64,000 nt of DNA from an uncultured bacterium (GTDB lineage Bacteria; Omnitrophota; Omnitrophia; Omnitrophales; Aquincolibacteriaceae): NCBI GenBank assembly GCA_964482725.1, contig CAYZYT010000003.1:116010-180009 (forward strand). Direction: 5' to 3'. Made by a program: the position numbers and the translations under genes. Shown here one piece after another: positions 4,954 to 62,600 of this stretch; within the stretch, counting starts at the first letter, position 1, and each line of letters opens with the position of its first letter. A model generated the notes under the pieces. The model did not search any database. It was not told where the DNA came from and was given only the letters and a program-made list of their open reading frames with translations.

Positions 4954-5277
4954 ATGCCCGTGAAAAAATATTTGATTGCTGCGCTCATATTTTCCCTCCT
5001 GATTCTTGGGGCGAGGGCGTCATTTGCGGAATGGTTCGATGGAGAAGTCCAGAAGATCGATGCCAAGGCCAAGACGATCACCATCAGTGAGATCGATCCG
5101 ATCACGGATACCGAAGAAAAAAAAGAAATCCTGACCGATCAAACCACCGTCTTTTTGGGCGTCACTTCTCTCCAGGATATCCGCGGGAACGATAATGTCA
5201 CGATTGAGGCCCAATACGATGAGCCGGCCGACGTCTGGAAAGCCCTTTCCGTTGAGGTCGCCGAGGCCGGCGCGTGA
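4954..5277 (+). CDS. Small secreted/periplasmic hypothetical protein with signal peptide
   Basis: ATG at 4954 preceded by a GAGGAA RBS; N-terminal signal peptide MPVKKYLIAALIFSLLILGARASFA; acidic mature part. The annotated longer ORF start (4831) lacks an RBS. Confidence 0.55.
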   Translation: MPVKKYLIAALIFSLLILGARASFAEWFDGEVQKIDAKAKTITISEIDPITDTEEKKEILTDQTTVFLGVTSLQDIRGNDNVTIEAQYDEPADVWKALSVEVAEAGA

Positions 5278-6254
5278 AACCTCGGGGAATCCACCGCACT
5301 TCGGGTTCCCGATCGCGGTGTTCAAAGGGATCTCTGGCTAAGCGGCGCTCATATGTTTTCGGGATCCTAACCACCCCTGCTAAAGATATCTTCCATTCGA
5401 ATTACCACCTCGGACTTCTTGCCGGGATTCTTCCGAAGATCAAGGCCGCGAAAAGCTGTTTGAAGATTGTCATGATGCCCTCCCAAACTTATAAGAGTCT
5501 CGATCAGATTCTTACTGAGCATGGACTAGACGGACTTTTGATCCTGACCTGGCGATGGATCCATCCTGAGATCGCGCGGTTGATCGAAACTTCCCGCCAC
5601 GATCGAGTGCTTGTGATTAATGACCCGGTCCCTGGGTTTCGAGTGAATAATCTTTACACCGATACCGATGCGGGCATGGCTCAGGCGGTGACGCATCTCG
5701 TCAAAAAGGGTTATCGGAAGATCGGCATGCTGCACGGGCCGTGGGAAGTGTCCTTTCAAATAAAAGGGACAGGTCTGAAAAAGCGCAGCAGACCTCTCCC
5801 TGACAAGAAGATCAAAGTGCCGTTCATTGATACCCAGCTCAAAGTGCGAGGGCTTCTCCGGGCGCTGAAGGCCAAGCGTGTCCCTTGTGATCCAACGTGG
5901 CTCCGGTCGGGAGCCGCCAACAGCGAGGCTGAGGGCTATTGCGTGATGACAGACTGGCTGCGTGAAAAAGATCTTCCCGAAGCGATCGTCTGCGGGAATG
6001 ACGACCTTGCCTTCGGGGCGATCAAGGCTTTGAAAGAAGCCGGCAGAAGTATTCCCCGGGATATGGCGGTGATCGGGTTCGATGACAATGAACGCGCAAA
6101 AAGTTTTTCGCCGCCGCTCTCGACCGTTCGCCAGCCGCTCGGGAAAATGGGGAAGGACGCCGTGGATATCCTGATCCGGCAGATCGAACGTCCTGCTTCC
6201 CAGCCTGTTTCCAGACGGTATCTCCCTAAACTCGTCGTTCGGAAGACCACCTAA
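5274..6254 (+). CDS. LacI-family periplasmic-binding-fold (sugar-binding core) protein apparently lacking the N-terminal HTH
   Basis: PBP type-1 core motifs of LacI/GalR regulators (..GILTTPAKDIFHS.., ..CGNDDLAFGAIKALKEAGRSIPRDMAVIGFDD..). No helix-turn-helix is visible in the ~25 residues before the core. True start uncertain. Confidence 0.5.
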   Translation: MKPRGIHRTSGSRSRCSKGSLAKRRSYVFGILTTPAKDIFHSNYHLGLLAGILPKIKAAKSCLKIVMMPSQTYKSLDQILTEHGLDGLLILTWRWIHPEIARLIETSRHDRVLVINDPVPGFRVNNLYTDTDAGMAQAVTHLVKKGYRKIGMLHGPWEVSFQIKGTGLKKRSRPLPDKKIKVPFIDTQLKVRGLLRALKAKRVPCDPTWLRSGAANSEAEGYCVMTDWLREKDLPEAIVCGNDDLAFGAIKALKEAGRSIPRDMAVIGFDDNERAKSFSPPLSTVRQPLGKMGKDAVDILIRQIERPASQPVSRRYLPKLVVRKTT

Positions 6255-6450: not shown

Positions 6451-7239
6451 ATGCTTACCACGGCCATTGCCATCGTGATCGGGTTCGGGTATTTTTTCTA
6501 TCCGTTCAAACTTGCCTGGGTCAGATTATTGCTCAAGTATATCGCCGGGCTTTTCTGCTTCTGGGCGGCATTTTTTTTCGCCGGTCCTTCGGTTGAGGCT
6601 CAGTTCGTGTCTCTTGCCGGGATCGTGATCCTTGGCATTGCTGCCGGGCTCATTTGTACGGATATGGTGGTCTCGGTCGTTCTGTGGCTTGTCGAACTGC
6701 TCGGGAATATCTTCCATAAGACGCCCCAGCTCCCGCAGTATCTGCTCGAGATCTGGTCAGCCATGGAGCGGATGGCCTCTCGTAAAGTGGGGGCTCTCAT
6801 CATCCTTCAACGCAAACAGCCGCTGCGTCCCTTGATGAAAGGCGGAATGCCGTTTGACGCGGAGATCAAGTCCGAGATCCTTGTCCCTCTCTTTTTGACC
6901 TCCTCTCCCGTGCATGACGGCGCACTTGTGGTGAATAAGGGCCGAGTGCAAACGGTGAAAGGGATTCTCCCGCTCGCGTCACTTTCCGATCTTTCTCCGA
7001 GTTTTGGGACACGGCATCGGGCAGCGATCGGGATCACGGAAAAGACGGACGCGGTCGCGCTCGTGGTCTCCGAAGAACGCGGCCAGATCAGCGTGGCTTA
7101 TCGCGGTTGTCTGGTTCATATTGCCGACCGTTCCGAATTTCTTAAGACCCTGCAGTGGGTGCTTAAGGGCAAGAATATCCTTCGCCTCAAGAACGCGAGC
7201 TTCATTGTTACCACCAAAGTGCTGGACGATCTGACATAA
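6451..7239 (+). CDS. cdaA: Diadenylate cyclase (c-di-AMP synthase, CdaA/DacA-like) with N-terminal TM segments
   Basis: DAC-domain hallmarks DGA...GTRHRAA and VVSEERGQIS; AGGGGGAAG RBS upstream of ATG 6451. Confidence 0.85.
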   Translation: MLTTAIAIVIGFGYFFYPFKLAWVRLLLKYIAGLFCFWAAFFFAGPSVEAQFVSLAGIVILGIAAGLICTDMVVSVVLWLVELLGNIFHKTPQLPQYLLEIWSAMERMASRKVGALIILQRKQPLRPLMKGGMPFDAEIKSEILVPLFLTSSPVHDGALVVNKGRVQTVKGILPLASLSDLSPSFGTRHRAAIGITEKTDAVALVVSEERGQISVAYRGCLVHIADRSEFLKTLQWVLKGKNILRLKNASFIVTTKVLDDLT

Positions 7240-7264: not shown

Positions 7265-7301
7265 GCACACTAAGGTAGGTCACGTTTAAACGTGACCTAC
7301 C
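7265..7301. repeat. Intergenic 37-nt element with a 28-bp perfect palindrome (ggtaggtcacgtttaaacgtgacctacc), copy 1
   Basis: Exact 37-nt identity with 31293..31329. Palindrome checked base by base. Sits 46 nt upstream of the glpK ATG. Confidence 0.8.
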
Positions 7302-7346: not shown

Positions 7347-8825
7347 ATGAAAAAATATATCTTGGCGATCGATCAAGGGACGACGGGTTCCCGGGCCATT
7401 CTTTTTGATGTGGCGGGAAAGACTGTCGCAAGTGCCTACCGCGAGTTCAAACAATATTTCCCTAAGCCCGGCTGGGTGGAACACGACGCCCAAGAGATCT
7501 GGCGCTCCTGCGAGACTGTGATTCGGGAGACCGTTCGTAAAAGCAAAATTGCTCCCAAAGAGATTCTTGCCATCGGCATTACGAACCAGCGCGAGACCAC
7601 TGTCCTGTGGGATCGCGAGACTTCGAGGCCTGTCCATCACGCCATCGTTTGGCAATGCCGCCGCACCTCAGACCTCTGCCGTGCTCACAAAAAACACGAG
7701 TCCGTGATCCATAAGAAAACCGGTCTTGTCCTTGATCCGTATTTCTCCGGCACCAAGATCGAGTGGCTGCTTGGCCATGTTCCGGGTCTTCGGAAAAGGG
7801 CTGTGGAGGGGAAGATTGCGTTCGGGACGATCGACAGTTGGTTGATCTGGAAACTTACAGGGGGTCGATCGCATGTAACGGATCTGACGAATGCGTCACG
7901 AACCATGCTTCTTAACATTAAAACAAAAAAGTGGGATTCCGAGCTTCTCAGGATCTTCGGTGTCTCTGCCAAGGTGTTGCCGAAGCTTCAGCCCTCCGGA
8001 TCGATCTTTGGGACGACTCAAAATGTTGCCGGACTTCCGGCCGGTATTCCGATCGCGGGCGTGATGGGGGATCAGCAGGCCGCGCTTTATGGCCAGGGCT
8101 GCTACGAAACCGGTACGAGCAAGAATACCTACGGCACAGGTTGCTTCATTATGATGAATACCGGCAAGAAATTTGTCACTTCAAAGGCGGGACTTCTTAC
8201 GACGCTTGCTTGCGACTTCAAAGGCCGGCCGGTTTACGCGCTCGAGGGGTCCGTTTTTATCGGCGGGGCCGTGGTCCAATGGCTTCGGGACGGTCTCAAG
8301 GTCATTAAGAGTTCTGTGGCGACTGAAAAAGCGGTCCGGAAGTTGAAGGACAACGGCGGCGTCTATGTGGTGCCGGCATTTGTTGGGTTGGGCGCGCCTT
8401 ACTGGAAAAGTGATGCGCGCGGCCTCATTACCGGGATCACGCGCGGGACTACGATGCCTCATATCATCCGGGCATGCCTTGAAGCGATCGCCTATCAGAG
8501 CCGCGATGTTTTTGATATTATGCAAAAGGCGTTCGGGGGTCGGATCCATGAACTGAAAGTCGATGGCGGCGCCTGCAAGAACGATCTTCTCATGCAATTC
8601 CAGGCGGATATTCTGAACGCGAGGATCCTCCGGCCCAAAGTGATCGAACTCACGGCCCGCGGTGTGGCGCATCTGGCGGGGGTGACGATGGGGCTCTGGA
8701 AAAAGAGCCACGACCTCAAGAAGCAACACCAGGTCGATCATATTTTTTCTCCGGCTATGAAGCCGGGGAAGCGAGCGAAGCTTTATCAGGGATGGCAGAA
8801 GGCCGTGGAACGAGCGATGCTCTAA
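7347..8825 (+). CDS. glpK: Glycerol kinase
   Basis: MKKYILAIDQGTTGSRAILFD... FGGY-family sugar-kinase motifs along the full length; 492 aa. Confidence 0.95.
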   Translation: MKKYILAIDQGTTGSRAILFDVAGKTVASAYREFKQYFPKPGWVEHDAQEIWRSCETVIRETVRKSKIAPKEILAIGITNQRETTVLWDRETSRPVHHAIVWQCRRTSDLCRAHKKHESVIHKKTGLVLDPYFSGTKIEWLLGHVPGLRKRAVEGKIAFGTIDSWLIWKLTGGRSHVTDLTNASRTMLLNIKTKKWDSELLRIFGVSAKVLPKLQPSGSIFGTTQNVAGLPAGIPIAGVMGDQQAALYGQGCYETGTSKNTYGTGCFIMMNTGKKFVTSKAGLLTTLACDFKGRPVYALEGSVFIGGAVVQWLRDGLKVIKSSVATEKAVRKLKDNGGVYVVPAFVGLGAPYWKSDARGLITGITRGTTMPHIIRACLEAIAYQSRDVFDIMQKAFGGRIHELKVDGGACKNDLLMQFQADILNARILRPKVIELTARGVAHLAGVTMGLWKKSHDLKKQHQVDHIFSPAMKPGKRAKLYQGWQKAVERAML

Positions 8826-26224: not shown

Positions 26225-26400
26225 TCTTTGAAGAAATCAGTGATAGGTGCTGCGGAACTGCGAAAGCGGTTCACGCGGCTTGATAGGGAAGTGAGTCTCG
26301 CGGAAAGATCGCGGGAACTCCACGGTGCCGCCGCTGTAGATGAGAACGAAAGCGAAACAGCCACTGCTCCTTCGGGGGTGGGAAGGTTCGCGATTAGGAA
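26225..26400 (+). ncRNA. Cobalamin (adenosylcobalamin) riboswitch aptamer
   Basis: Conserved core AUAGGGAA (26283-26290) ... GGUGCCGCCGCUGUAGA (variant of CGGUCCCGCCACUGU) ... B12 box CAGCCACUGCUCCUUCGGGGGUGGGAAGGUUC (26358-26390). Close to the E. coli btuB leader (GACACUGCCAUUCGGUGGGAAGUC). Sits upstream of a btuB-like operon. Confidence 0.7.
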
Positions 26401-26540
26401 TGACAAAGCTCATCGAGTCAGAAGACCTGCCTGTTACACAACTCAATATTCAAAATCCTCCGTGCAGAGGAAGCAAAGGTGTCCCGATTCTCCTCTTCTG
26501 AAAATCGGGACCGCGCGGATCAATCAAATGATCCGCTGGC

Positions 26541-26578: not shown

Positions 26579-28699
26579 GTGTCTGGAAATTCAAAGCTCC
26601 GGAGCGAGCATCTCCGGAAGATCAGTTTTTTGTTTCTCGCCGTTTGCCTTCTAAATATCGGATGGAGCTGGCCGTTCTCTAAAAAAAATGACGGGGAACG
26701 CAAACCTACCGTCGAAACTCAATCTATAGCGCCGATCGCTCCGAAAGCTGAAATTAAAGGCCCTCTCCGTCCCGTCGCCGCAGATGTGACGGTCCTCGAA
26801 GTTACACGAACTGAGGATCCCATTGCGAATGTGACCCGGAGTATTTCGGTCATTGATCAGGAAGAGATCCAAAATTCCACCGCTCGCTATGTGCCGGAAC
26901 TATTGAAATCCAAGGCCGGGATCACCGTGACAAATACCACCGGGAACCCCAAAGGGATGACCGTCGATATGCGCGGTTTTGGCGATACGGCAAATCGGAA
27001 CGTGCTTGTGCTTGTCGACGGCCGCCGGACAAATCCGATGGATATTTCCGGGTCGGATTGGGCCGCTATTCCACTTGAGACCGTCGAGCGCATTGAGATC
27101 ATTCGCGGGCCTTCTTCCGTGCTTTACGGGGACAATGCCGCGGGAGGTGTGATCAACGTGGTGACAAAAAAGGCCGGGCCAGGCGTTCATGCCAAGGCGG
27201 AGACTGAAATCGGATTGCATCAATACAAGCGGACGGGTGCGACAGTCTCCGGGGCTAACGACTGGGCGGACGGTCTCTTCCATTATGAAAACACACAGGA
27301 TGACGGCTGGCGCAACAATACGCAATATTGGGCGAACGACTGGTTCGGCAAGTTCGGGGTCGGGCCTTTTGAAGGAGCGGGAGTGAATTTCACTGCGGGG
27401 CATCATCGCGATCGGTATGGGTTAGCAGGCGATCTCTCTGTGGACGAAATGGCGAGCATGGGTCGAACGGGGAGTACGACTTCAAAGGATCATGCCTGGA
27501 GCCAAGAGACCTATTTCACAGCAGATCCTGAGTGGAAATTTGAGCTAGGCGAAAACGCATTTGTGATCTCCGGGTTTAACTCGTTTCAGCGCCGTTTAGC
27601 TAAGGCGGATTATGTTTCCATGGCCAGCAGTGCCGTGAACAATCTGGATTCCTATGAGTTCCAGCCCAAGATGAGCTGGGCGCGCCCTCTTACCGATTGG
27701 CTCACGAGCAAATTAACGACGGGTCTTGATTTCTTTTCAGGGAAGAATGATGTCAAAAACGTCGGGACCACGTTTACGAAGCTTGCGACCATCACCAAGA
27801 AGTCGCTGGATGTTTATGTGATCGAGAATTTTTCATTGTGGGATAAGTTGCTCTTGAATATGGGATTTCGCGGGGGCTGGGCAAAGTACCGGTTTGATCA
27901 GTCTGGGGATACGACGAACCTTGATCAGACGGGGATGCGGAATGCCTCGTTTGATTTTGGAGTCGGGTACAAAGTGTTTGAGAGGTCTCTTGCCTATTTT
28001 GATATCTCCCGTTCTTTTCGGATGCCAGCGACCGATGAATTTTACAGCACCTTCGGAAGCGGTTTGAATGCGGGTTTGAAACAGCAGCAAGAGATGGATT
28101 ATGAATTGGGTTTCCGTGACAATACATTCAAACCGTTGAATATGAGCATGAATCTCTTTCTGGCTGACATCAAAGATGAAATTTTTTATGACCCGAGTGG
28201 CGGCCCGGGAGGATGGGGGGCTAATGCGAATTACGAATCGCCGACGAGACGGTACGGATTCGAAATGGAATCCTCACTGAAACTTTTTAAAAAACGCTGG
28301 TTCAATATTACGCCGTTTTTTAACCTCACAACACAAAAGCCTTATTTTAAAGGGGGGACCTATTCGGGAAAGCACGTCCCGATGGTGCCTGATTTTAAGT
28401 ATTCCACGGGATATACCCTGGAACCCCTTAAAGGGCTGACGGTTTCGACCGAGCTGAACCATCTCGGGCACCAGTTTGCGATCAACGATCAAAAGAATAA
28501 CCTTCCAAAACTTAAAGCTTATACAGTCGTGGATATGAAGGTCCGCTATCATTGGCGATGGGCCACGGCTTGGATTTCTCTTACGAACCTTTTCAATAAA
28601 AAGTACTCAGAGTACAGCGTCGATAACTACATCGGTGGCACGGACTACTATCCGGCGCAGGGCCGCAACCTGGTCACGGGTTTTTCACTGGAGTATTAG
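26579..28699 (+). CDS. btuB: TonB-dependent outer-membrane receptor (BtuB-like cobalamin receptor)
   Basis: Plug domain (..DMRGFGDTANRNVLVLVDGRRTNPMDISGSDWAAIPLETVERIEIIRGPSSVLYGDNAAGGVINVVTKK..), 22-strand barrel region, C-terminal ..GFSLEY. Riboswitch-controlled. Start codon uncertain (GTG 26579). Confidence 0.85.
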   Translation: MSGNSKLRSEHLRKISFLFLAVCLLNIGWSWPFSKKNDGERKPTVETQSIAPIAPKAEIKGPLRPVAADVTVLEVTRTEDPIANVTRSISVIDQEEIQNSTARYVPELLKSKAGITVTNTTGNPKGMTVDMRGFGDTANRNVLVLVDGRRTNPMDISGSDWAAIPLETVERIEIIRGPSSVLYGDNAAGGVINVVTKKAGPGVHAKAETEIGLHQYKRTGATVSGANDWADGLFHYENTQDDGWRNNTQYWANDWFGKFGVGPFEGAGVNFTAGHHRDRYGLAGDLSVDEMASMGRTGSTTSKDHAWSQETYFTADPEWKFELGENAFVISGFNSFQRRLAKADYVSMASSAVNNLDSYEFQPKMSWARPLTDWLTSKLTTGLDFFSGKNDVKNVGTTFTKLATITKKSLDVYVIENFSLWDKLLLNMGFRGGWAKYRFDQSGDTTNLDQTGMRNASFDFGVGYKVFERSLAYFDISRSFRMPATDEFYSTFGSGLNAGLKQQQEMDYELGFRDNTFKPLNMSMNLFLADIKDEIFYDPSGGPGGWGANANYESPTRRYGFEMESSLKLFKKRWFNITPFFNLTTQKPYFKGGTYSGKHVPMVPDFKYSTGYTLEPLKGLTVSTELNHLGHQFAINDQKNNLPKLKAYTVVDMKVRYHWRWATAWISLTNLFNKKYSEYSVDNYIGGTDYYPAQGRNLVTGFSLEY

Positions 28700-30246: not shown

Positions 30247-31284
30247 TTGAGCATTTTTAGCTTTCAGCCTAGGCGAGGATTCATGAAAAAAAATATTGGC
30301 AAAGAGCTGCCGGCCCTATGGCTTTATGGCCTGCTCGGGATCGCGCTTGCGGCAGCTTTTCTTGGGTCCTTGAATGTCGGTCCTACGAAGATCCCGCTCT
30401 GGAATGCTTTCCTCCATCCTTCGTCGGAGGGGGCTTTTATTCTCTGGGACATTCGTTTGCCACGCGCAATCTTGGGACTTTTGGTGGGAGCGACGCTCGG
30501 GCTTGCCGGTGCCGCGATGCAGGGATTTTTGCGTAATCCTTTGGCGGAACCCGGCGTGCTTGGCGTGACGGGCGGCGCGGCGCTTGGCGCAGTGCTTGTT
30601 TTTTACACCGGGCTTGCCTCGGCGTTTTCGCTGGCATTGCCCCTCGGCGGCATTTTGGGGGCATTTTTTTCCGTGCTTTTGCTCTATCTTTTTGCCGGCC
30701 GTCTCGCGAACGTTCAGACGCTGATCCTGGCGGGTGTGGCGATCAACGTGATTGCGTTCTCGGGGACTTCTCTGGTGCTCAATCTCACGAAAGATCCGTA
30801 CGCCGTTCTTGATATTGTTTTTTGGCAGATGGGTTCGCTCGCGGACCGGAGTTGGACGCATGTCTTTTTGGCGTTGCCTTTCATCCTGATCGGGTGGGGT
30901 TGGCTTTTTTGGGACCGGCGGGCGCTGGACGCGTTAAGCCTCGGCGAAGAAACGGCGGCGAGTCTTGGTCTGGATCTCAAGGCCCTGCGCCTGAGGATGA
31001 TCCTGGGGACGGCTCTTTGTGTGGGCGCGGCAGTGTCGATATGTGGAAGCATCGGTTTTGTTGGACTCGTGGTGCCGCACCTTTTGCGCCCGCTCGTGGG
31101 GCATGAACCGGGAAAACTTTTGGGCGTTAGCGCTTTGGGCGGGGCGCTGCTTCTTCTTTTATCCGATAGCGTGGTACGGCTCATTCCCTCCATGGTGGAA
31201 CTGAAGCTGGGCGTTGTGACGTCCCTGATCGGCGCGCCATTTTTCATTTTGCTGATCTTTCAGATGAGGCGGAAACTTTTATGA
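30247..31284 (+). CDS. btuC: FecCD-family ABC permease (BtuC-like)
   Basis: 10-TM FecCD pattern with conserved ..LPRAILGLLVGATLGLAGAAMQGFLRNPLAEPGVLGV..; start may be the ATG near 30283. Confidence 0.85.
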   Translation: MSIFSFQPRRGFMKKNIGKELPALWLYGLLGIALAAAFLGSLNVGPTKIPLWNAFLHPSSEGAFILWDIRLPRAILGLLVGATLGLAGAAMQGFLRNPLAEPGVLGVTGGAALGAVLVFYTGLASAFSLALPLGGILGAFFSVLLLYLFAGRLANVQTLILAGVAINVIAFSGTSLVLNLTKDPYAVLDIVFWQMGSLADRSWTHVFLALPFILIGWGWLFWDRRALDALSLGEETAASLGLDLKALRLRMILGTALCVGAAVSICGSIGFVGLVVPHLLRPLVGHEPGKLLGVSALGGALLLLLSDSVVRLIPSMVELKLGVVTSLIGAPFFILLIFQMRRKLL

Positions 31285-31292
31285 AGGGACAG

Positions 31293-31329
31293 GCACACTA
31301 AGGTAGGTCACGTTTAAACGTGACCTACC
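31293..31329. repeat. Intergenic 37-nt element with 28-bp perfect palindrome, copy 2 (between btuC-like and btuD-like)
   Basis: Identical to 7265..7301; palindrome ends 16 nt before the ATG at 31345. Confidence 0.8.
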
Positions 31330-31344
31330 TCCATTAGGATAAAT

Positions 31345-32103
31345 ATGGCGACCTTAATTGAAGCGAAAAAAATCAGCGTTTCGTTTGGCGACGTTCCGAT
31401 CCTTCAGGACGTGGACCTTGAACTCCGGAAGGGAGAAGTGCTTGGGCTTATCGGACCGAATGGCGCTGGAAAATCGACTTTGCTGAAAGTGCTTATCGGC
31501 GAAGTGACGCCGGAGTCGGGGAGTGTCAGGATCCTGGACGGGAAGAAGTCCCCACTGGCAAAAAAGGTCGCTTATTTGCCGCAAGGGCAGGTTATCCACT
31601 GGCCGCTTAGCGTGAAGCGGTTGGTTTCCCTGGGGCGCATTCCACACCTTATGCCTTGGGAGCCGTTGGGCCCGGAAGATGAGAAAGCGATCGCTCGTGC
31701 GATGGAAGATACGGACGTGACACGTCTGAAAGACCGTTTTGTTGATCATTTGGCCGGAGGCGAAAGAAATCTGGTTCTCTTAGCTCGCGCGCTTGCGACT
31801 CAACCTTCCGTGCTTTTGGCGGATGAGCCTGTTCAGGGGCTTGATCCGGCACACGGACTTCAAGTGATGGAACTTTTATCCCGGTTTGTGGACCACGAAC
31901 GGGGCGCGATCGTGGTATTGCACGATCTGACGCTTGCGGCTCGGTTTTGTCACCGGCTTGTCCTGCTCGATCAGGGAAAGGTTCTTGCCTCGGGAAAGCC
32001 CGAAGAAGTTCTTTCGCCCGAAAATCTCAAGAAGAGTTATCATGTCGAAGCTAAGTACGGAACCGGCGACGAGTTTTATATCGTGCCTTGGAGAAAGGTC
32101 TGA
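31345..32103 (+). CDS. btuD: ABC ATPase of B12/iron-complex importer (BtuD/FhuC-like)
   Basis: Walker A GPNGAGKSTLLK, signature LAGGERNLVLLARAL, Walker B LLADEP. Confidence 0.85.
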   Translation: MATLIEAKKISVSFGDVPILQDVDLELRKGEVLGLIGPNGAGKSTLLKVLIGEVTPESGSVRILDGKKSPLAKKVAYLPQGQVIHWPLSVKRLVSLGRIPHLMPWEPLGPEDEKAIARAMEDTDVTRLKDRFVDHLAGGERNLVLLARALATQPSVLLADEPVQGLDPAHGLQVMELLSRFVDHERGAIVVLHDLTLAARFCHRLVLLDQGKVLASGKPEEVLSPENLKKSYHVEAKYGTGDEFYIVPWRKV

Positions 32104-32726: not shown

Positions 32727-32735
32727 AAAATCGTG

Positions 32736-32810
32736 GAACGGGTAACGGGAAACGGGGAACGCATGACCAAACTCGTTTGCCGTTCCCCGTTCAGCGTTCC
32801 CCGATCCTTG
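32736..32810. repeat. REP-like hairpin repeat, gggtaacgggaaacgg / ccgttccccgttcagcgttcccc family, copy 1 (downstream of cobO)
   Basis: Imperfect ~75-nt palindrome, about 80% identical to 34547..34625; a related ggcaacggtaacg...cgttaccg hairpin lies at ~33540-33650. Confidence 0.6.
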
Positions 32811-33690: not shown

Positions 33691-34545
33691 GTGGAAGCGA
33701 AAAGACTTGAAGGAAAAGTAATCGCAGCGAGCCTGCAGGAAAAGATCCTTGAGAAGGTAGGGGCCGCTACAAGGGCGGGTCTTCCAAGGCCGTCTTTGGC
33801 TGCGATCCAGACGAGTGATGATCCGTCCGCAGTCTGGTATATCAACAGCCAAGAAAAACTTGCCGCAAAACTCGGCATTGATTTTCGGCGCATTATGCCT
33901 GATCAAGTGAAGGGGGAGAAAGCCCTGATCCAGAAGGTTCAGGAGCTTGGCGCCGATAAAACGGTCCATGGACTTTTCATTTCAATGCCGTTCCCCCAGG
34001 GAATTGACGCCGACAAAGTGTTGCTTGCCATGGATCCGAAAAAGGATGTCGAGGGGGTTCATCCCACAAGCCTTGGACTGATCGTTCTTCGGCGCGGCAA
34101 ACTGATCCCTCCTACGGCATTTGCCGCCTACACGCTCATTAAGGCGAGCGGCATCATGTTACGCGGGAAAAAGGCGGCAATCATCGGTCAAAGCGCCATT
34201 GTCGGAAGACCCCTCCAGCTATTGCTGGGCGAGGCACGGGTGACGACGCTTGTTTGTAATACGGGTACGGCCGAAGAAGATATGAAGAAAATCGTTGGAG
34301 CGGCTGAGATCGTAGTGGCTTGTTCGGGGAAGCCCGGTCTTGTGAAAGGCGCTTGGATCAAGCAAGGCGCGGTCGTGATCGATGTCGGGACGACTGAGGT
34401 CGACGGGAAACTCCAGGGCGATGTCGAATTCGATGAAGCGAGCAAAAAAGCCAGTTTTATTACGCCCGTCCCTGGAGGCGTGGGGCCGCTCACCGTGACC
34501 ATGCTCATGGAAAATCTTATCATTGCGTATGAATGGCAAAAATAA
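33691..34545 (+). CDS. folD: Bifunctional 5,10-methylene-THF dehydrogenase / 5,10-methenyl-THF cyclohydrolase
   Basis: Conserved FolD blocks ..GKKAAIIGQSAIVGRPLQLLL.. and ..TPVPGGVGPLTVTMLMENLI..; 284 aa. Confidence 0.9.
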   Translation: MEAKRLEGKVIAASLQEKILEKVGAATRAGLPRPSLAAIQTSDDPSAVWYINSQEKLAAKLGIDFRRIMPDQVKGEKALIQKVQELGADKTVHGLFISMPFPQGIDADKVLLAMDPKKDVEGVHPTSLGLIVLRRGKLIPPTAFAAYTLIKASGIMLRGKKAAIIGQSAIVGRPLQLLLGEARVTTLVCNTGTAEEDMKKIVGAAEIVVACSGKPGLVKGAWIKQGAVVIDVGTTEVDGKLQGDVEFDEASKKASFITPVPGGVGPLTVTMLMENLIIAYEWQK

Positions 34546-34546
34546 A

Positions 34547-34625
34547 AGCCGGGTAACGGGTAACGGGAAACGGCGAACGCATGCCGGTTTTCGTTCCCCG
34601 TTCAGCGTTCCCCGTTCCCCGAGAA
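34547..34625. repeat. REP-like hairpin repeat, gggtaacgggaaacgg family, copy 2 (downstream of folD)
   Basis: See 32736..32810. Confidence 0.6.
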
Positions 34626-50540: not shown

Positions 50541-50616
50541 TGTTTTTTATTAAAAAAGTGATGCGGAGCTATTGATTTACCTCATTTTGTAGAGTATTCT
50601 TCTATTAGGGAAGAAA

Positions 50617-53600
50617 ATGAAAAATAAAAATGTTGTAGACCAACTATGGGAATGCAGTGACTCGAAACGTGGAATGGGGAATGGGGAACGTTCTGCGAAT
50701 TTCGAACTGCAGAAGACAGACCAGAGACTAGAGACTGCAGCCTGGAATTTTGGAACGTGTGACAAGCGTTTGGTTTATGAGTCTCCGGTCTCCAGTCTCT
50801 TGTCTCGAGTCGTTTTCAAAAAAGCGGTGGCGCTTGCGACAGCCTTTGTATTCCTTTGGTCGATGTGCATCACGCCGGTGATGGCGGAAACGATCAATGT
50901 CCAGGGCGGCAGTATTGATGTGAATGTTCAGGACAATACGACGAACTGGAATGTCCAGGGCAATCCCGTGTGGAACGTCCCCGAGTTCAATGTGGCGCAA
51001 GGAAACATTTATAACATCGCGGGTCTTAATCAGGGCTCCAGTCTTGCGCTTCTTGTGAACGGCGGCAGTGCCTCCAACATCTTCGGAACGATGAACCTCT
51101 CCAATCTGGATTTCATTCTTCAAAATATCGCCGGCATCAACATCGGCGGAAGTGCCATGATCAATCTCTCGAACGCGTCCCTAATCGCCTCGACATTGCC
51201 ACTCAACCTGAGCACGACGGATTTTCTCTCAAGGGATTATCAGTTCAGCGGGCAGGGCGGGTTCCTGATGAATGCTGGGAAGATCGTCGGGACAAATGCC
51301 GATCTTGTGGCCCTGGTTGCGAACGCCATCGAAAACCGCGGGACGATCGAAGTACCGATGGGTACCGTGGCGCTTGCTGCGGGGAATACGGTCACCGTTG
51401 GCATCTCGCCGGACGGCATGGTCTCGATCGGTGTCGATGAAGCGACAGCGAACAAAATGGGCTTGAAGGATCAGATCAAGAACAGTGGAAGTATCACGGC
51501 CGACGGAGGCCGGGTGGTCCTGAATGCTCAGGCCATGGACGGGCTCTTTGACAAAGCCATCAGCATTGAACGGAGCGGGAACTCTGTCGATGCAGTCCGG
51601 GCGGATAACGGTACTGTCGATTTCCAATCCATGGATGATGTCTTTAACGATGCGGTTATCAAAGCATCGGGCGGGACCGTCAAGATCGCATCAACCCAAG
51701 GCGCCGTGATGAATGCCGGAACCCTTGAAGCAAACAAGGGCAAAGTTGAAGTGACAGCTGCCCAAGAAGTGACGAATAAGGCGAAGATCGAGGCGATCGA
51801 AGGAGCGATCAAGATCATCTCTGAGAAAAGCGACGTGGTGAATCAGGGGACGATGAAGGCGGACAAGGGTGAGATCAAGATCGCCTCGACCCAGGGTGCC
51901 GTGACGAATGCCGGGACTGTGGTGGCGGCTAAAGGTAAAGTCGAAGTCGTGGCCGCTAAAGACGTGACGAATCAAGCGACCGTTCAGGCGGATGAGGGTT
52001 CGATCATCGTCGTGTCCACGAAAAGAGATGTGGTGAATCAGGGGACAATGAAGTCAGAGAAAGGCGAGGTCAAGATCACCTCCACTCAAGGGAACGTGAC
52101 GAATGCCGGGACGGTTGCCGCGGATCATGGCAAGATCGAAGTGACCGCTAAAAAGGATATTGTGAACGACGCCATCATGAGCGGCGTGGGAGGAGAGATC
52201 AAGGTCAATTCCACCGAAGGGGCTATCACGAATAAAGGCACGCTGAAAGCCGACGACGGAGCCATCAGACTCACGGCGGCGCAAACGGTTTATAACAAAA
52301 AACTTATGGATGCGCGACAGGGCAAGATCGAAGTTGAGTCCGTAAAGAGTGACGTGGTGAACGAAGGGACGATGGCGGCTGAAAAAGGCGAGATCAAAGT
52401 CACGTCTCTGGAGGGCAAGATCACGAACGCCGGCATCATGCAGGCCCAGAGCGGCAATATCAAGCTCACCGCCGAACAGGCGGTTTACAACAAAATGCTC
52501 ATCGAAGCGCTTGGCGGTAAGGTGGAAGTGACCTCCAAGAAAGCGGAGGTTACGAACGATGGTACGCTTGACGCGGTGGGAGGAAAAGTCGCGCTGACTG
52601 CGGCGGGCGCAGTGGAAACAAAGGGCGTTTTGAAAGCGGCGGAAGTGACCGAGCGTGGCGCGAGCTTCAAGATGGGCGGGCGGGTCGAAGTCGGGACGAT
52701 GGATATGGATAACCTCGACAATCGCGCGGACATCGCGGCGCTGGCCGAACTTTCCGGTGTTTTTTCAGACGAAGATGACATTACCGTCCTCGGCGATTTC
52801 AGTCTTGTCGGAGATACCACGATCTGGACCGATTCCAATGTGACTGGGACGGACGGGACGCTCACCTGGGATGCGGATCATACCGTGACTGGGAACGGCC
52901 ACGACCTCACGCTCAAAGTCTCCAAGAATTCCACCGTCGGCGCGATCACAGGCGTGGATCTTCTCACGCTCGACAAGAACACCGACAAGACGCCGACTTA
53001 TACCGGCTCCACCGCCAATGACATCAGCGTGAACACTTTCAAGACCATGAACGGCGTGACCTTTTCCAAGACCGTCACCGGAAGAGACGGCCTCGCCGCG
53101 AATACAGCCTTTCTTGTCTACGATGTGACCCAACTCCAGGGCATGGCCAATGACCTGGATGCCTTTTATGAAGTCGCCAACAACATTGACGCCTCCGAGA
53201 CCTCAAGCTGGAATGCCGGTGCCGGTTTCGATCCTGTGGGAAATGTCGATCCGGGGACCGAGTTTACGGGAACGTTTGACGGTGCAAACCACACCATTTC
53301 TGATCTTAAGATCAGCACCTCTTCCGACAATGTCGGCCTTTTCGGCTATATCTCCGGGGCCGGAGCCATGATCTCAGATATCCGGCTCTTGAATGTCGCT
53401 GTCGCGGGCGGTACTTACGTTGGCGGACTCGTAGGATTTAATGCCGGCGGCTCCGTTGATAATGCAGGCAGCAACGGGACTGTTAGTGGTAGTAATGTCG
53501 GCGGGCTAGTGGGACAGAATGAAGGTTTTATCAGTAACTCTTACGGCGGCGGAACCCTCAGCGGTGGCAATGTCGGCGGCTTCGTGGGATACAATACGGG

Positions 53601-56600
53601 CACTATCAGCTACTCCTACAGTACGGGGAGTGTCAGCGGCGGTAACAATGTCGGCGGATTGGTGGCGGTGAATAGTGGACCTATCAGTTACTCCTATAGC
53701 AATGCAGATGTTTTTAGCAGCAATTCTTCTATCGGCGGGTTGGTGGGAAATAACTCCTTTGCTACCATCAGTAACTCCTACAGCACCGGACGCGTTTTCG
53801 GCGGTCAGTATGTGGGCGGGTTGGTGGGTATCAACGATAACGGTTTTGTCAATAATTCCTACAGCACAGGAAATGTTGTTGGAAGTGGTTCTTATTATAG
53901 CAATGGTCAGTACATCGGCGGGTTGGTGGGAGGTAACTGGTATGGCTCGGTCACTGATTCCTACAGTACGGGAAGTGTAAGCGGCGGAATCCGTGTGGGG
54001 GGATTGGTGGGTATGAACGATTGGAGTTCCATCAATAATTCCTATGCGACAGGAAATGTATCAGGCAATACCGCGTCTAACAATTTAGTCGGGCCTCTCA
54101 CAGGTACTCAGGGCACTATTAATAATTCCTACTACGTGTCAGGCACTGCCAGCAATAGTGGCGGCGGTACAGTCAATACCTATGGAACCGGGACTGATAC
54201 CGTAGCCAATTTTCAGAATCCGGCTCACACAGCCTTGGTTTACACAGCGGGTGCTTCTCCTTGGACATTCAATGCCTCCAACTGGAAGGTCGTGACCTAC
54301 GATGATGATTATCCCTATCTGACGTTCGAGGAGAATGTTAATACGGCGGCTCAACTTAAAGCTATCTCTGGCGGTGATTTAACGGCCCGATACAGGCAGG
54401 GCGCCGATATCGATCTGACCAGCGTAGATTTTACCTCCTATATCATCGGTAACACTACGGCTTTTACGGGCACATACAATGGCAATGGTTATACTATTTC
54501 TAATCTTACAATAAGTGCGCCGACCACGGATAATGTCGGGCTCTTCGGATCCACATCCAACGCGACGATCCTTTCCAACATACATCTCCAGAACGTGGAT
54601 ATTTCCGGTCAATCGAGCGTCGGCGGATTGGTGGGGTCCAATAGCGGTGCTTTTATCAGCAATTCATCGGTTTCCGGGATTGTAAGCAGTACAGGTGATT
54701 ATGTAGGCGGGCTTGCGGGATCGAGCTTTGGCTCTATCAGTAATTCTTACAGCTCCGGCAGTGTAACAGGCGGTGGCGATTATGCCGGCGGGTTGGTGGG
54801 AAGTGTTTTTTTTAGCACCCTCAGTAACACCTACAGTACTTCGAGCGTAAGCGGTCATGATTATGTGGGCGGGTTGGTGGCATACAGTGAAGGTATAACC
54901 ATTCTTAACTCCTACAGCACCGGGAATGTAAGCGGTGCTAGCTATGTCGGTGGTTTGCAGGGATTTAGTGATGGTTCCATCGATAATTCGTTTAGTACAG
55001 GACGTGTCACTGCTACCGGTAGTTATGTGGGCGGTTTGGTGGGAGGAAATTGGAGCACAATTACCAATTCCGGATGGTATGACAACGCCGGAGATAGTGC
55101 CACTTATGCCATCGGAAGCGCCTCAGCGGACATCACCTACAATGTCGGGAAAGCAGGTACGGACGGAGGCGGCAAATATTACTATGCATCTTCTGACTCG
55201 ACCTGGTTCTTCGATTCCTCGAAGGATATTTATGATACGGGCGCGACTCCGTGGGATATTGCCGCAACGCATGATGGCTCTGCTTGGGCGATGTCGGGGA
55301 GTAATAGCGCGTTCCCGCTCCTGCAGATGCGTTACTCCACGACGATTACTGACGCTGTTCAGCTCCAGTTGATGTTCCTTGATCTCGCAGGTAATTACAC
55401 TCTCGCCAACAACATCAGCGCTGCGGAAACCTCGACCTGGAACGCTGGTCTCGGATTCGATCCGGTGGGAGACAGTACGAATGAATTCAGGGGAATTTTT
55501 GACGGTAATTCGAAGGTGATCACAGGCCTTACGATCAACAGAGAAACCGAGAGTTATGTCGGCCTTTTTGGGCAAACAAGCGCCGCGACAATTTCAGACA
55601 TCGGCCTCTCTGACGTCAATGTCAAAGGCCTCGAGTTTACCGGCGGACTGGTGGGCTACAATTACAACAGCACGATCGAAAATTCTTTTTCAGCAGGTAC
55701 CGTGACGGGCGCTGATGCGAGTTCCCAAATCGGAGGTCTCGTGGGTAAAAATGATTCTTCAGGCGAGATTACCCATTCTTATTCCACCGGGACTGTCACT
55801 GCCGGCAGCGGGAGTTATCGTGTCGGCGGGCTTGTGGGTTATGCCGGCTCTACAAGTAATATCAACGATTCCTATTCCACGGCGGACGTGACAGGCGTCG
55901 GCGATAGTTCTTATCTCGGCGGTCTTTTGGGCTTTAATAATGGCGGTGCCATCGCCAGCTCTTACGCGTCAGGTACCGTAACAGGCGGCGTTGGAAGCTA
56001 CAATATGGGCGGCCTTGTCGGGACGAATTATAACGGCGGCACGATCAATAAGTCCTACTCCACCGGGGCTGTCACGGGAAATGACGACAGTTATCAACTG
56101 GGCGGACTTGTGGGGCAAAACGGTACTGCCGGCGCTGCAAGCGTGGTCAGCAACTCTTATTCCACGAGTAACGTAACGGGCGGCAGCAATAGTTATCGTC
56201 TCGGTGGACTTGTGGGAGAGAACAGCTCCAGCGATATTACCAACGCCTATTCATCCGGAACTGTCGCAGGTGCAGACGGTACCTCCCAAGTGGGCGGTCT
56301 TGTGGGTTTTAATAATTCAGGCGACGTCACGAACTCCTTTTCGGCAGGCGCCGTCACCGGCGGTACCGGCAGCGACCACATCGGCGGTCTTGTCGGTGAT
56401 GATGTCACCGGCACCTACGTCAACAACTGGTATGTTTCCACCAGCCAGGGGATTAGCAATAAAGCGGATGTTGTAGGCGAGGTGAGCAAGGAGACCGACG
56501 GCGCGAGCGCTTTCTTTGATTCTGCGCATCCGGTCTATTGGCTTAATGGCATTCCCTCAGGGACGGCTGCTTGGGATATCCATACGACTTACAATGCCAG

Positions 56601-59600
56601 CAATATATGGGCGATGCAGGGGACAGGCGAAATGCTTCCGATGCTCCAGATGCGCTATGCGACGGACATCACGGATGCCGTATCGTTACAGCTGATGTTC
56701 CTCAACCTCGCAGGCAATTACACCCTCGCAAATAACATCGATGCTTCGGAGACTGCGACCTGGAATGCCGGTCTTGGCTTCGATCCGGTGGGCAATAACG
56801 CGGGCCGGTTCACGGGTTCGTTCGACGGGAACGGATATTCCATCAGCGGGCTGATCATCGATCGGACCACGGATCATACCGGTCTCTTCGGTTACGCGCA
56901 GTCCTCCAACAGTTTCACCGATGTTAACCTCACGGGCGTGTCGATCACGGGCGCCAATAACGTTGGCGGCTTGATCGGAACGAGTGACGGAGTGAGCGTG
57001 TCGGGTTCTTCCGTGGCCGGCGCGGTGAGCGGCTCGGGCCAGCAGATCGGCGGCCTCATCGGTTTTATGACGGAGGGAATTCTTTCGGACTCCTACACGA
57101 CGGCTTCCGTGACCGCTACGGGAACGAGCGATAGCGTGGGTGGCATTGTCGGCGGGCTTACAGCCGGGACGATCGAGAGAGCTTATGCCTCCGGAGATAT
57201 TTCAGGTTATGGGAATGTGGGCGGCATTGCCGGATATGCGGACACTTCCAGCACGATCAAAAATGTTTACTCCACCGGACACGTGACGGGGACTTCCTGG
57301 TGCATCGGCGGTATCGTTGGCTGGTTTGATTCGAGCACGCTTGAAAATTCCTACGCCTCGGGAAGGGTCGAGGGTGGCTCGGGCGACAGCGGGGATGTGG
57401 GCGGACTTGTAGGAACCAACAAATCGACCAGCACGGTGAAGAATTCTTTCGCGACGGGACTGGTCACCGGCCAAACCGATGTGGGCGGCGCAATCGGCGA
57501 TAACGCCAGCGCTACGAATGTGAACAACTGGTGGTACAGCGCCACCGCCCAGGGCGTCGGGGCCGGTTCCGCGTCGGGAGTGAGCCAGGAGACGAACGGT
57601 GCTGCAGCTTTCTACGACCCCAGCCATCCAGTGTATAACGGCACCACAACCTGGGATTTCGCCACACCGGTTTGGGTGGAAACCGCGAATACCTATCCTC
57701 TCTTAGCGTTTCAATTCACAGTCATCTCGACTCCTGAACAGTTAGAGGCGGTGTCGAGTGGTAATCTTGCCGGATACTATCGGCTTGGAGACGATATTGA
57801 TCTGGCCGGTATTGATTTTACGCCTTATATGATCGGGAATGATGCCACGGCATTCTCAGGTATCTTTGCGGGGGCCGGGCATACGATATCCAATCTATCC
57901 ATAAACAGCGGATCGAATAACGTGGGATTGTTCGGATATACGAATGGCGCCCGATTTTCAAATATTGGATTGATCAATACCGATGTCACAGGCACCGGTT
58001 ATGCCACCGGGGGATTAGTGGGGGTGAGTTACTACTCCGCCATAGCCCATGCCTATTCCTTGGGGACTGTAACGGGTTCTTTTATCACCGGCGCCTTGGT
58101 GGGCTATAATTTCTCTTCGCCTATTTCTAATTCTTATGCCGCGAGTACTGTCGTGGGTTATCAAACCACCGGCGGCTTGGTAGGAAGTAATTCCTACTCC
58201 GACATCTCTAATTCCTACTCCACGGGCACTGTCACAGGGACGGGAACCGGCGGAGGTGATTATTCCACCGGCGGCTTAGTGGGATGGAATGAAGCATCCA
58301 CCATCTTTAGTTCTTATTCCGCGAGCGCCGTAACAGGTGCGGGTTATTCCACCGGCGGTTTAGTGGGATGGAATGGTTACGCCATCATCTCGAACTCCTA
58401 TTCCGTCGGTCCGGTCATAGGAACTGGTTATGCCACCGGCGGCTTAGCCGGAGTTAATAATTTGTCCGAGATCACCAACTCCTACTCTGCGGGTACTGTG
58501 GCAGGCAATAATGCCGCCGGAGGGGTGGTGGGATTTAACCGCTATTCCACCATCACCAACTCCTTTGCCACCGGGAGGGTGGATGGTTCTCTGTACATCG
58601 GCGGCCTTGTGGGCGACGATTTCAGTGGCACCTATGCCAACAGCGGTTGGTACAAAGATCCCGCCGGCGATGCCGTCTACGCCATAGGGGACACTTCGAC
58701 GGACGCTACCTATAACGTAGGAAAGTCCGGTACAGATTCAGGGGACCTACATTACTTTTCTACTGCCACCCCGAGCTGGTTCTACGATAAAACGCAGGAC
58801 ATTTATGATACAGGCGCGACGCCGTGGGATTTTGATGCGGATGGTGTTTCGGCTGGACATAACGGCAACTGGATCATGGCGGGCCTGCCGCACCTGCAGA
58901 ATGAATGGACGGACACCATTACCAACGTCGCGCAACTCCAGATGATGGCGCTTGATCTTGATGCCAATTACACCCTCGCCAATAATATCGATGCTTCGGA
59001 TACCGTCAACTGGAACGCTGGCCTCGGCTTTGATCCGGTGGGGTATTCGACCATTGTGAATTCGATGGACCATCCTTATACCGGAAATTTTGATGGGAAT
59101 TCCCATACGATCACGGGGCTTACGATCAATCGTCCCACAGAGGATTTCGTGGGTCTTTTTGGAGGTATCTCGGGGAATGTACACGATGTCGGGCTTACCA
59201 ATGTGTCTGTCACAGGGGCTGCGTATGCCAGCGGCTTAGTTGCCATGAACCTTGGTACGATCGATAAATCATATTCACAAGGTGCCGTTAGCGGTTCAGA
59301 CGCTGTTGGCGTGCTATGTGGATATAATGGATATCTCTCGGGCTCTATTTCGAATTCCTATTCAACGGGAACAGTTCGCACCAGTTGGAGAGACGTGGGG
59401 GGACTGGTCGGGACCAATGCCGGCATCATTCTCAACAGCTATTCATCGGCTGCTGTGACAGGAGGATCGCTTACCACTTCCGGGGGTCTCGTGGGGTATT
59501 TCCCCGCAGGGAGTATCTCTAACAGCTACGCAACGGGGATTGCCACAGGTCCCAGCAATGTGGGCGGGCTGATTGGCTATTATAGTGCCGGTACGCTGAC

Positions 59601-62600
59601 GAACAACTATTGGTACAACGAGACGAATACGGTGGGTATCGGAAATACCACTTCCGCCAACGTAACGAAAGCCGCGTCCTCATCAGCCCTGACGAGTTCT
59701 AGCCACGCGGTTTATTCGGGATGGGATTTTGATGCGGATGGTGTTTCGGCTGGACATAACGGCAACTGGATCATGGCGGGCCTTCCGCATCTGCAGATGG
59801 AATGGACGACAAGTATCACGAATGCCGCCGAACTCCAGATGATGGCCCTCAATCTCGATGCTTCCTATGTGCTCGCCGACAACATTGATGCCTCCGGGAC
59901 CGCGACCTGGAATTGGGACGGGGCAAAGTATCTCGGATTTGATCCGATAGGCAGAAGTGCGCCATATTTTACGGGAACTTTTGACGGACAAAATCACACG
60001 ATCGCGGACCTTGCTATCAATCGGCGAACTGAAACCATGGTCGGTCTTTTTGGGATGACGAGCGGTGCGGAAATTCGGGATGTTGGCCTTGTGGGTGGCA
60101 GCGTGAGTGGCCATGGTTTTGTCGGTTCATTGGTTGCGGTCCATTCTGCGAGTTCAATCATTACAAACGCGTACTCGACGGCTGATGTGATCGGCACTTG
60201 GGCTGTGGGTGGCCTAGTGGGCAATAATCAGGTAGGTGCGAGCGTTGTCGATTCGTACGCGGCTGGGGACATCCACGGTAGTTACAACCAGATTGGGGGT
60301 CTGGTCGGTCATAATGTTAGTTCGAGTATCACAAATTCTTACGCGACTGGCAATGTGACCGGTGAAGGGAACGAAGTTGGCGGTTTGGTTGGGAATAATG
60401 AATTGGGTGCGAGCATTACCGACTCGCATGCTACGGGCAGTGCAAGTGGGGTCGATAGTGTCGGGGGTTTGGTGGGAATGAATGAGGATGAGGATTCCCT
60501 TATTACAAATTCCTATGCTACGGGCGATGTAAGCGGTACGACCAATTTTGGCGGTCTTATTGGACTTAATGTTGCAAGCGGGATCACGGGGATTACCGAT
60601 TCTTACGCTCATAAAGTCTACAACGCCCTCGATCTGCAACTCATGCGGTATGACCTCGATGGTAACTTCACACTTCAGAACAATATCGATGCTTCGGCGA
60701 CCTCGACCTGGAACTCCGGTTCCGGTTTTGTCCCCGTCGGCGATTTTACTAATAAATTTTCCGGATCACTCAATGGCCTTGGCCATAAGATCAGCGGCCT
60801 CTTTATCAACCGATCGACGACAGACAACGTGGGCTTGTTTGGAGCTACGTCAGGAACGGCGGTGCTGAGTAACATCGGCATGGTGGGGAGTAATTTCCTC
60901 GGGAAACGGGAGGTGGGGGGATTGGTCGGCTATCATCTGGGGGCGATCAGCAACTCTTACAATGCTGGGACTCTCTCGGCTGCGGGTGTGTATCTTGGAG
61001 GATTGGTCGGCTACATGGCCGGCGGGTCGATCACCGATTCGTACAATACGGGAACTCTTTCCGGGCTTCAGGCCGTCGGAGGACTGGTCGGGTATAGTGC
61101 CGGTTCCATTACTCGTTCTTATAATTCCGGAAGTGTGACCGGCACCGATATCAATATCGGCGGTTTGGTGGGGAGTAACACGGGCGCGATCACCAATTCG
61201 TTTAACGCGGGGCATGTCACCGGCGTCACCACTTCGACCGGCGGCGCGATCGGCCTTCAGAGCAGTGGTGCGCTTACCAACAACTGGTATGTCGACAGTT
61301 CCGATACCGGGATTACCTGGGGAGTCGGCAGCAACCATACCGACCCCAGCGGCATCAATAAGCAAGCCGGTGCAACGATCGATGTAGCCAAGGCCGCTTT
61401 CTATTCCTCCGGACATACGGTCTATTCGGGATGGGATTTTGATATGAACGGTATTTCAGCGGGGAATGACGGGACCTGGATCATGGCCGGCCTGCCGCAT
61501 CTTCAGAACGAATGGACCACGACGATCACGAATGCCACCGAACTCCAGATGATGAACTTGAATTTTTCTGCCCATTACACTCTCGCCAATGATATCGATG
61601 CCTCCGCGACTTCGACTTGGAATGGCGGTCTCGGTTTTAAACAAGTGGGGTACACGACAGGAAACCAGTGGAGTCCTCCGAACAAGCTGTTCACCGGAGA
61701 ACTGGACGGCGGGGCGCACACGATCACGGGGCTGACGATCGATCGACCGGCGGAGTCCTATGTCGGGTTGTTCGGAGCGACCAGCGGAGCGACGGTCAGT
61801 AACATCGGGCTCCTGGACGTCGACATCACCGGTTACATGTCCGTCGGCGGTCTTGCCGGTTCGAGTGCCGGCGGCAGCAGCATCACCAATGCCTATGTCA
61901 CTGGGATTGTGACCGGGGATATGAGCAACCAGTGTTTTGGCGGGCTTGTGGGGGTCAACGATACCGCCTCTTCCATTGCGAATTCCTATTCGACGGCGGC
62001 GGTCGTAGGCGGGGATCTTGCGGGCGGTCTGGTGGGTTTTAATGACATCGGTTCTACGATCACCAACTCCTTCTCCACCGGAATCGTCACCGGCGGGTGG
62101 GGCATTATCGGCGGCTTTGCCGGTGAGAATGACGGCACGATCACCAATTCTTTTTCAACCGGCGCCGCGACGGGGGCAGGAACGGTGGGCGGAATGCTCG
62201 GGTATGTCAGCGGCGGCACGCTGACGAATAACTGGTGGTTTAACGAGACGAATCGAGTCGCGGTCGGCAATGCGTCTCCTGCCGGCGTTACCAAAGCCAG
62301 CGGCTATGGCGATTTCTACGGGACGGGTTCGGGCACCGGTGGCGCGGTGTATAACCCCGCGGCCAGCAGTCCGTGGGTGTTCGATGCTTCGAATTGGTCC
62401 GCGTCGCTCGACGATATGGATAGCGACCTCTACTATCCGTCCCTTGCTTTCGAGAATAAAGTTTACACAAAGATCTCGGATGAAGCGGGCCTCCGAAATC
62501 TTCATGAAGGAAATCTTGCCGGCAATTACTATCTCGGTGCGGATATTCCGCTCACCGCGCCTTTTACAAGCGACATCATCGGGAACAGTACGACGCCTTT

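Follow-up and report, generated by a model that had tools for sequence, protein, structure and literature searches.

The 37-nt element gcacactaaggtaggtcacgtttaaacgtgacctacc, which occurs twice in the window (the whole 64-kb stretch of DNA analysed here), is very probably a member of a GTAG-tagged REP family whose cognate enzyme is a RAYT (HUH/Y1) conserved in Candidatus Omnitrophota. Hairpins of this family are physically associated with RAYT genes in the loci of relatives. Judged by sequence comparison, both window copies are lineage-specific additions that were recently acquired. This is a known kind of system, namely a GTAG-type REP family with its RAYT, and the transposases have already been labelled by annotation pipelines, whereas the repeats have not.

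Both copies lie on the forward strand, at 7265..7301 and 31293..31329, and are identical, as the preliminary description of this DNA had reported. Each consists of a 5' tail and a perfect hairpin. The tail motif CACACTAAGG occupies 7266..7275 (+) in copy 1 and 31294..31303 (+) in copy 2; it ends in the G that opens GTAG and includes a conserved CT dinucleotide 3 nt before GTAG. The 28-bp perfect palindrome GGTAGGTCACGTTTAAACGTGACCTACC that had been noticed inside the element was confirmed at 7274-7301 and 31302-31329, and in copy 2 one more complementary pair extends it to 30 bp (31301..31330). It fits the family consensus GTAGGNCACNTTTAAANGTGNCCTAC, with GTAG at 7275-7278, the TTTAAA centre at 7285-7290 and CTAC at 7297-7300 of copy 1. 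The arms and loop of the hairpin read GTAG-GTCACGT-TTAA-ACGTGAC-CTAC. Since GTAG, conserved throughout the family, is mirrored by CTAC on the opposite arm, GTAG is formally part of the stem, and the hairpin, being symmetric and double-GTAG-tagged, is therefore identical on both DNA strands. The predicted RNA fold has the 12-bp stem and 4-nt loop proposed earlier (-20.5 kcal/mol, z = -6.8), and the hairpin is predicted to be strong whichever strand is transcribed (-20.5 to -24 kcal/mol, z -4.9 to -6.8).

The 28-bp palindrome has only these two matches in the window when up to 3 mismatches are allowed (0.00 expected, based on 100 dinucleotide-preserving shuffles), and no degenerate relatives were found in the 64-kb window at up to 6 mismatches to the family consensus. 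Scanning the window for other TTTAAA-centred palindromes, for GTAG...CTAC hairpins and for the tail motif alone likewise gave no further copies, and the copy number is thus 2 per 64-kb window, both of them singletons; REPs usually occur in many copies. The flanks of the two copies show no significant similarity to each other; the shared unit is therefore exactly 37 nt, and a longer shared unit is rejected. An Rfam scan of the window at gathering thresholds returned the cobalamin riboswitch only, with no match at the 37-nt element, and neither a RAYT nor a comM gene is present in the 64-kb window. A second, unrelated hairpin repeat of ~75 nt (GGAACGGGTAACGGGAAACGGGGAACG ... CGTTCCCCGTTCAGCGTTCCCCG) was observed at 32731-32807 and 34550-34622, with both copies intergenic, one right after btuR and the other after an ORF ending at 34545; it may represent another REP-like or terminator-like family.

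Copy 1 occupies part of the 107-nt spacer that separates cdaA (6451-7239), which encodes a diadenylate cyclase (DAC) domain, from the FGGY kinase gene glpK (7347-8825), which is followed by a glpD-like gene; the element ends 46 nt before the glpK ATG at 7347. Copy 2 lies in the B12 uptake operon, in the spacer between the FecCD permease gene btuC (30247-31284, TGA at 31282-31284) and the ABC ATPase gene btuD (ABC_tran, 31345-32103, ATG at 31345). It begins 8 nt after the permease TGA and ends 16 nt before the ATPase ATG. Both distances to the start codons had been given correctly in the preliminary description, and its gene assignments, glpK on one side and a btuD-like gene with its FecCD partner in a B12 operon on the other, also hold. 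The B12 operon is headed by the cobalamin riboswitch (26228-26448, 79.7 bits), followed in order by ORF 26579-28699, a TonB-C protein, a BtuF-like protein, the FecCD permease, the element, the ABC ATPase and BtuR; from its operon position, we infer that ORF 26579-28699 encodes a TonB-dependent receptor. Both window copies are intergenic and sit between co-directional genes. Elsewhere in the window, an ORF on the forward strand (50593-63999, at least 4469 codons) runs past the window end and is densely filled with degenerate repeats whose translation gives GGLVG-type motifs. The ORF apparently belongs to a giant repeat protein similar to those reported for Omnitrophota (bioRxiv 10.1101/2023.11.21.568195).

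Copy 2 is not an assembly artefact, because the independent Logan contig L148 spans btuC, the element and btuD with the same sequence as the window. Two other Logan contigs identical to the window (L146 and L147) both start within the REP, at a point 45 nt upstream of the ATG of btuD, which indicates that short-read assemblies break at the REP.

Sequences of this kind recur in the genomes and metagenomes of many Candidatus Omnitrophota. An exact search with the 20-mer core GGTCACGTTTAAACGTGACC gave 14 matches, distributed over 10 species-representative MAGs. Six of these MAGs are labelled Candidatus Omnitrophota or Omnitrophica and the others Margulisiibacteriota, Chloroflexota, Planctomycetia or uncultured bacterium; among viral contigs, there were 0 matches to this core. 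A metagenome scan with four free positions (TAGGNCACNTTTAAANGTGNCCTA) gave at least 120 loci. Both free N pairs of the consensus are Watson-Crick in 152 of the 155 copies compared (those of the window plus the matches listed), in ten compensated combinations, the window copies being of the T-A/G-C type. The three non-complementary copies among these 155 comprise one G-U wobble and two mismatches, with no enrichment of wobbles. Differently compensated variants share a 2-kb stretch of one genome (L012) and are direct neighbours in another locus (L122). Such coexistence fits hairpin conservation or hairpin-templated repair, and not the operator of one regulator.

Among the matches listed, 113 of 141 distinct copies (80%) are intergenic, in loci of which called ORFs cover 82.5%. 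Where a copy outside ORFs has a called gene on each side, the two genes are co-directional in 62 of 90 cases, again among the matches listed. The neighbours of the core in many genomes are unrelated genes, including argJ, coaX, yggT, comM and those for TPR proteins, among others. In one locus (L005) the full palindrome reaches 46 bp (GCACACTAAGGTAGGTCACGTTTAAACGTGACCTACCTTAGTGTGC), and in other loci an extension of 9-10 nt is present on one side only, which may be either side; the 37-mer of the window can thus be read as a symmetric hairpin with a one-sided tail. Relative to transcription, the tail is sense in 7 cases and antisense in 1, in a small sample that includes RAYT flanks and orthologues.

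Two further features of the family were observed. Of 130 distinct copies (L001-L134 plus the window), 25% are palindromic for 3-30 bp beyond GTAG...CTAC, against 1.6% expected. These extensions are copy-specific, and in one copy (L123) all 74 bp displayed are palindromic; the extensions might stem from insertion at pre-existing palindromes, from two-sided tails or from hairpin-templated copying. In addition, a variant hairpin, GTAGGGCACATTTAAATGTGCCCTAC, is found inside a conserved unit of ~100 nt (ATGCGTTGCTCCAGTTATTCCCTCCTG...GGAAGAGAGGATAGAGCGAATATCTCTCAGG) in both orientations. This unit has 38 full-flank copies in the loci fetched, mostly from sample Ga0265297, including three (at 5155, 9564 and 11706) in the 14-kb locus L034, whose source organism is ~80% identical to the window across cdaA-glpK-glpD.

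The link to a transposase comes from MAG contig JBAZER010000017.1 (L003), where the exact 37/38-mer of the window lies in the same orientation 27 nt upstream of the ATG of a RAYT gene. This gene was reconstructed by joining the adjacent chunks L003:1-326 and L008:7844-8000. A reading of these two pieces as the ends of a circular 47-kb contig was rejected, the simplest interpretation being adjacent 8-kb chunks of one linear record. Downstream of the gene stands a second family hairpin with two tails. Codon 86 of the reconstructed gene is an in-frame TGA instead of the Arg codon (CGA) of its homologues; either the gene became a pseudogene recently or the TGA is a sequencing error.

A tblastn search with the L003 protein retrieved full-length genes for Y1 transposases from L026 and L129, each with a palindrome on either side. 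With 130.7 and 123.8 bits, the encoded proteins clear the cutoff of 80 set for NCBIfam model NF047646 ('REP-associated tyrosine transposase'), and with 30.6 and 34.3 bits they stay below the cutoff of 55 for the IS200 model NF033573. The flanked gene belongs to the Y1/HUH transposases (Pfam PF01797), and its best match among solved structures is 4ER8, the E. coli TnpArep (E = 1e-9, residues 2-144 aligned), with PDHLHLI and LEYMHNNPV aligning with the HUH motif and the Y115 (Y-x-x-x-NPV) region of that enzyme, respectively. A protein search gave 70 homologues, some of which are named 'REP-associated tyrosine transposase [Candidatus Omnitrophota bacterium]' by NCBI and some RayT by JGI.

Five further distinct RAYT loci, with 56-91% identity to the L003 query fragment, were fetched. 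All five have a family palindrome ahead of the RAYT gene, at 16-54 nt from the ATG, and three of them have a recognisable one behind it, at 46-67 nt from the stop. Altogether, the RAYT gene is flanked on both sides in L003+L008, L026, L129, L135, L137 and L141, and in L144 a truncated copy follows the stop. In the three closest loci, the hairpins are preceded on the sense strand by 1-3 tandem CACACTAAGG/CACACTAACG tails that repeat every 15 nt. In L135, L137 and L141 the tails before and after the gene are in direct orientation on the same strand. The RAYT gene adjoins or is near comM (Mg-chelatase-like) in all loci across this 56-91% identity, which points to a fixed, vertically inherited locus rather than a hopping insertion sequence. 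Family hairpins are far more common alone than with the RAYT gene.

Some of these loci carry additional features. A diverged family palindrome (e.g. GTAGCGCATGTTTAAACATGTGCTAC) overlaps the RAYT stop codon, before the tails and REP that follow the gene, at 3483-3508 of L135, 3483-3508 of L137 and about 4875-4900 of L001. In other lineages the tail beside the hairpin is TTATCCACAAGG or GTTATCCACAAT and contains a perfect DnaA-box sequence, TTATCCACA; such tails were seen at 161-200 and 692-740 of L026, at 425-470 and 961-1000 of L129, and in L100. A link of this tail to replication origins was considered and dropped, because the copies bracket RAYT genes, and the resemblance may thus be coincidental.

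Comparison with relatives reveals sites that lack the element. In five orthologous operons with 69-90% BtuD identity, btuC and btuD overlap by ATGA (...AAACTTTTATGA...). The same junction in the window holds lineage-specific extra sequence of about 67 nt net (31285..31351, +), and its 60-nt spacer is made up of 8 nt, the REP and 15 nt with a new AGGA Shine-Dalgarno sequence, btuD having a new ATG and one extra Ala codon compared to the orthologues. A spacer of the window type is also present in relatives with 94-95% identity (L051, L126 and L148). Between copy 2 and the copies of L051 and L126, 0 of 37 positions changed in the element and 7 of 23 in the remaining spacer (Fisher p = 6e-4), and this invariance beside a diverging spacer reflects either constraint or homogenisation. 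At the other site, the stop codon of cdaA overlaps the start codon of glpK (GTGA) in L034, the 80%-identical relative. In L160, whose DAC protein is 91% identical, a 67-nt spacer of unrelated sequence stands between cdaA and glpK; it contains other small palindromes but lacks a REP. That spacer (3290-3356 of L160) holds a 16-bp perfect palindrome of its own, ATCTCAAATTTGAGAT, and the cdaA-glpK junction seems to be a place where small palindromic inserts accumulate. Neither window insertion is clean: the additional sequence amounts to ~67 nt between btuC and btuD and to 107 nt between cdaA and glpK, of which only 37 nt are common to both, and no target-site signature is visible at the window insertions. 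Of the candidates put forward in the preliminary description, the miniature mobile repeat is the one supported, given that family palindromes flank RAYT genes and the orthologous sites of relatives are empty.

Another of those candidates was an operator, which would be bound as a duplex by a dimeric transcription factor co-regulating the glycerol and B12-uptake genes. Perfect dyad symmetry just upstream of two start codons and a nearby gene with a LacI-type periplasmic-binding domain (5274-6254) are in its favour, but the unrelated neighbours of the core in many genomes, the palindromes bracketing transposase genes and the symmetric compensated variants within one genome all speak against it, and the element has no co-occurring regulator. 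Moreover, no sigma-70-like promoter is predicted at either window copy, copy 2 is internal to a riboswitch-controlled operon, and orthologous btuC/btuD junctions exist without any spacer; we consider an operator extremely unlikely. Even less credence can be given to a transcription terminator or attenuator. A stable GC-containing stem-loop does stand downstream of a stop codon at both sites, but the hairpins are followed by CCCAGGAA and TCCATTAG rather than by a T-run, a scan for U-tract terminators finds none at either copy, in agreement with the earlier judgement that a terminator is unlikely, and termination at copy 2 would cut btuD and btuR off from their sole upstream control region.

It is unlikely, though less so than these, that the element is primarily a host RNA element, i.e., a stabiliser or processing hairpin within polycistronic mRNAs that sets how strongly the upstream gene is expressed relative to the downstream one, with mobility being only its historical origin. 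Much of what was observed would suit such a role: the strong hairpin predicted in either orientation, the placement between co-directional genes of both window copies (copy 2 being 8 nt past a stop codon in a riboswitch-led operon) and of most family copies with genes on both sides, and the invariance of the element next to a diverging spacer. REPs have also been reported to stand mostly behind coding regions, with transcription being plausible (PMC3733652). However, these features are compatible with the REP explanation as well and do not exclude it, the rare non-complementary copies are not enriched in G-U wobbles, and relatives do without the element at both junctions. A role in RNA processing or stability, also among the candidates of the preliminary description, is plausible as a secondary effect of the element. 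Very unlikely, in turn, is that a true IS200/IS605 insertion sequence, and not a RAYT-served REP, underlies the element, which would then be one of its ends or a miniature form of it (PATE/MITE). The flanked gene does encode a Y1/HUH transposase, the tails of L135, L137 and L141 are on the same strand at both ends like the left and right ends of IS200/IS605, and the ~100-nt unit with the variant hairpin is highly repeated in one metagenome; but the proteins score above the cutoff of the curated RAYT model and below that of the IS200 model, the position next to or near comM at 56-91% identity points to vertical inheritance at a fixed locus, and the gene together with its ends was not seen as a multi-copy unit, with hairpins being mostly alone.

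A REP served by a RAYT, our preferred reading, finds its parallels in systems described from other bacteria. GTAG REPs are 20-40 bp long with stems of 6-13 bp, form sub-families with complementary stem changes and flank RAYT genes in arrangements called 'REPtrons' (PMC3733652), to which the Omnitrophota RAYT loci conform. In E. coli, TnpArep requires GTAG and cuts at CT on either side of the hairpin, possibly at some distance, and binding depends on a bulge in the stem and on a 5' GTAG that is left unpaired (PMC3479197). The Omnitrophota family resembles E. coli REP/BIME with TnpArep (4ER8), the 'GTAG-3' of Di Nocera et al. 2013, in its short extragenic GTAG hairpin, in the gene for an HUH/Y1 enzyme flanked by repeats, in the compensated stem sub-families and in the CT near the hairpin. 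It differs from E. coli REP in having a perfect stem with no bulge, GTAG on both arms and paired with CTAC, an AT-rich TTTAAA centre, a 10-nt tail motif that is sometimes present in 2-3 tandem copies, window copies that are singletons instead of BIME clusters, and a host outside the Enterobacteria. RAYT-flanking repeats have been described in inverted orientation (PMC2817692), whereas the tails of the Omnitrophota RAYT are direct. With the Pseudomonas REPIN-RAYT system (Bertels and Rainey 2011; Bertels et al. 2017) it shares the fixed transposase position and the dispersed non-autonomous repeats, but its unit is a single perfectly symmetric hairpin and its window copies are singletons. The GTAG-24 REPs, which have 12-13-bp stems and are mostly single in P. 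stutzeri (PMC3733652), are alike in their long stem (12-14 bp in the present family), minimal loop and solitary occurrence, but their sequence is unrelated and their tag is described as unpaired and terminal. Finally, IS200/IS605 ends and PATEs have in common with this family the Y1 enzyme, subterminal hairpins on single-stranded DNA and same-strand motifs at the gene ends, and are set apart by the model scores of the enzyme given above.

By analogy with E. coli TnpArep and IS200/IS605, the hairpin would extrude on single-stranded DNA. The RAYT would then bind the extruded hairpin together with GTAG, cut at a nearby CT, one of which is present in the tail, and transfer the strand, thereby seeding new intergenic copies. 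For the host, the insertions would mean that btuC-btuD and cdaA-glpK have lost translational coupling. The stable hairpin predicted in each transcript could block 3'-to-5' exonucleases, and at copy 2 it could slow ribosomes terminating 8 nt upstream. Either effect would shift the expression ratio between the upstream and downstream genes. REPs of E. coli provide precedents as barriers to 3' exonucleases and in ribosome stalling, and a 2015 paper in Mol Cell reportedly deals with REPs near stop codons. Going further, we tentatively entertain a wider scheme, which we regard as possible but improbable as a whole: a REP-RAYT pair would be inherited vertically throughout the phylum, with a symmetric double-GTAG hairpin and with arrays of CT tails acting as RAYT cleavage or guide sites, and copies would preferentially be kept at overlapping stop/start junctions, where they would rebuild the ribosome binding site and start codon and become co-opted as operon 'punctuation' that uncouples translation.

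To our knowledge, REP-RAYT systems have been studied almost only in Proteobacteria, and in a literature search combining Omnitrophota with REP/RAYT, none of the top-ranked papers links both. Worth recording in the present family are the symmetric double-tagged hairpin, the tail arrays, and a core kept across transposases down to 56% identity, as are the two insertions that split gene pairs which overlap in relatives. The finding extends REP-RAYT systems to the uncultivated phylum Omnitrophota and places the perfect palindrome in a class of selfish or domesticated DNA, which averts its mis-annotation as a glycerol/B12 operator. The consensus GTAGGNCACNTTTAAANGTGNCCTAC with its CACACTAAGG tail is usable for MAG annotation and flags assembly break points. 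Matched occupied and empty sites, with split genes and a new start codon, offer a natural experiment on how repeats reshape operons.
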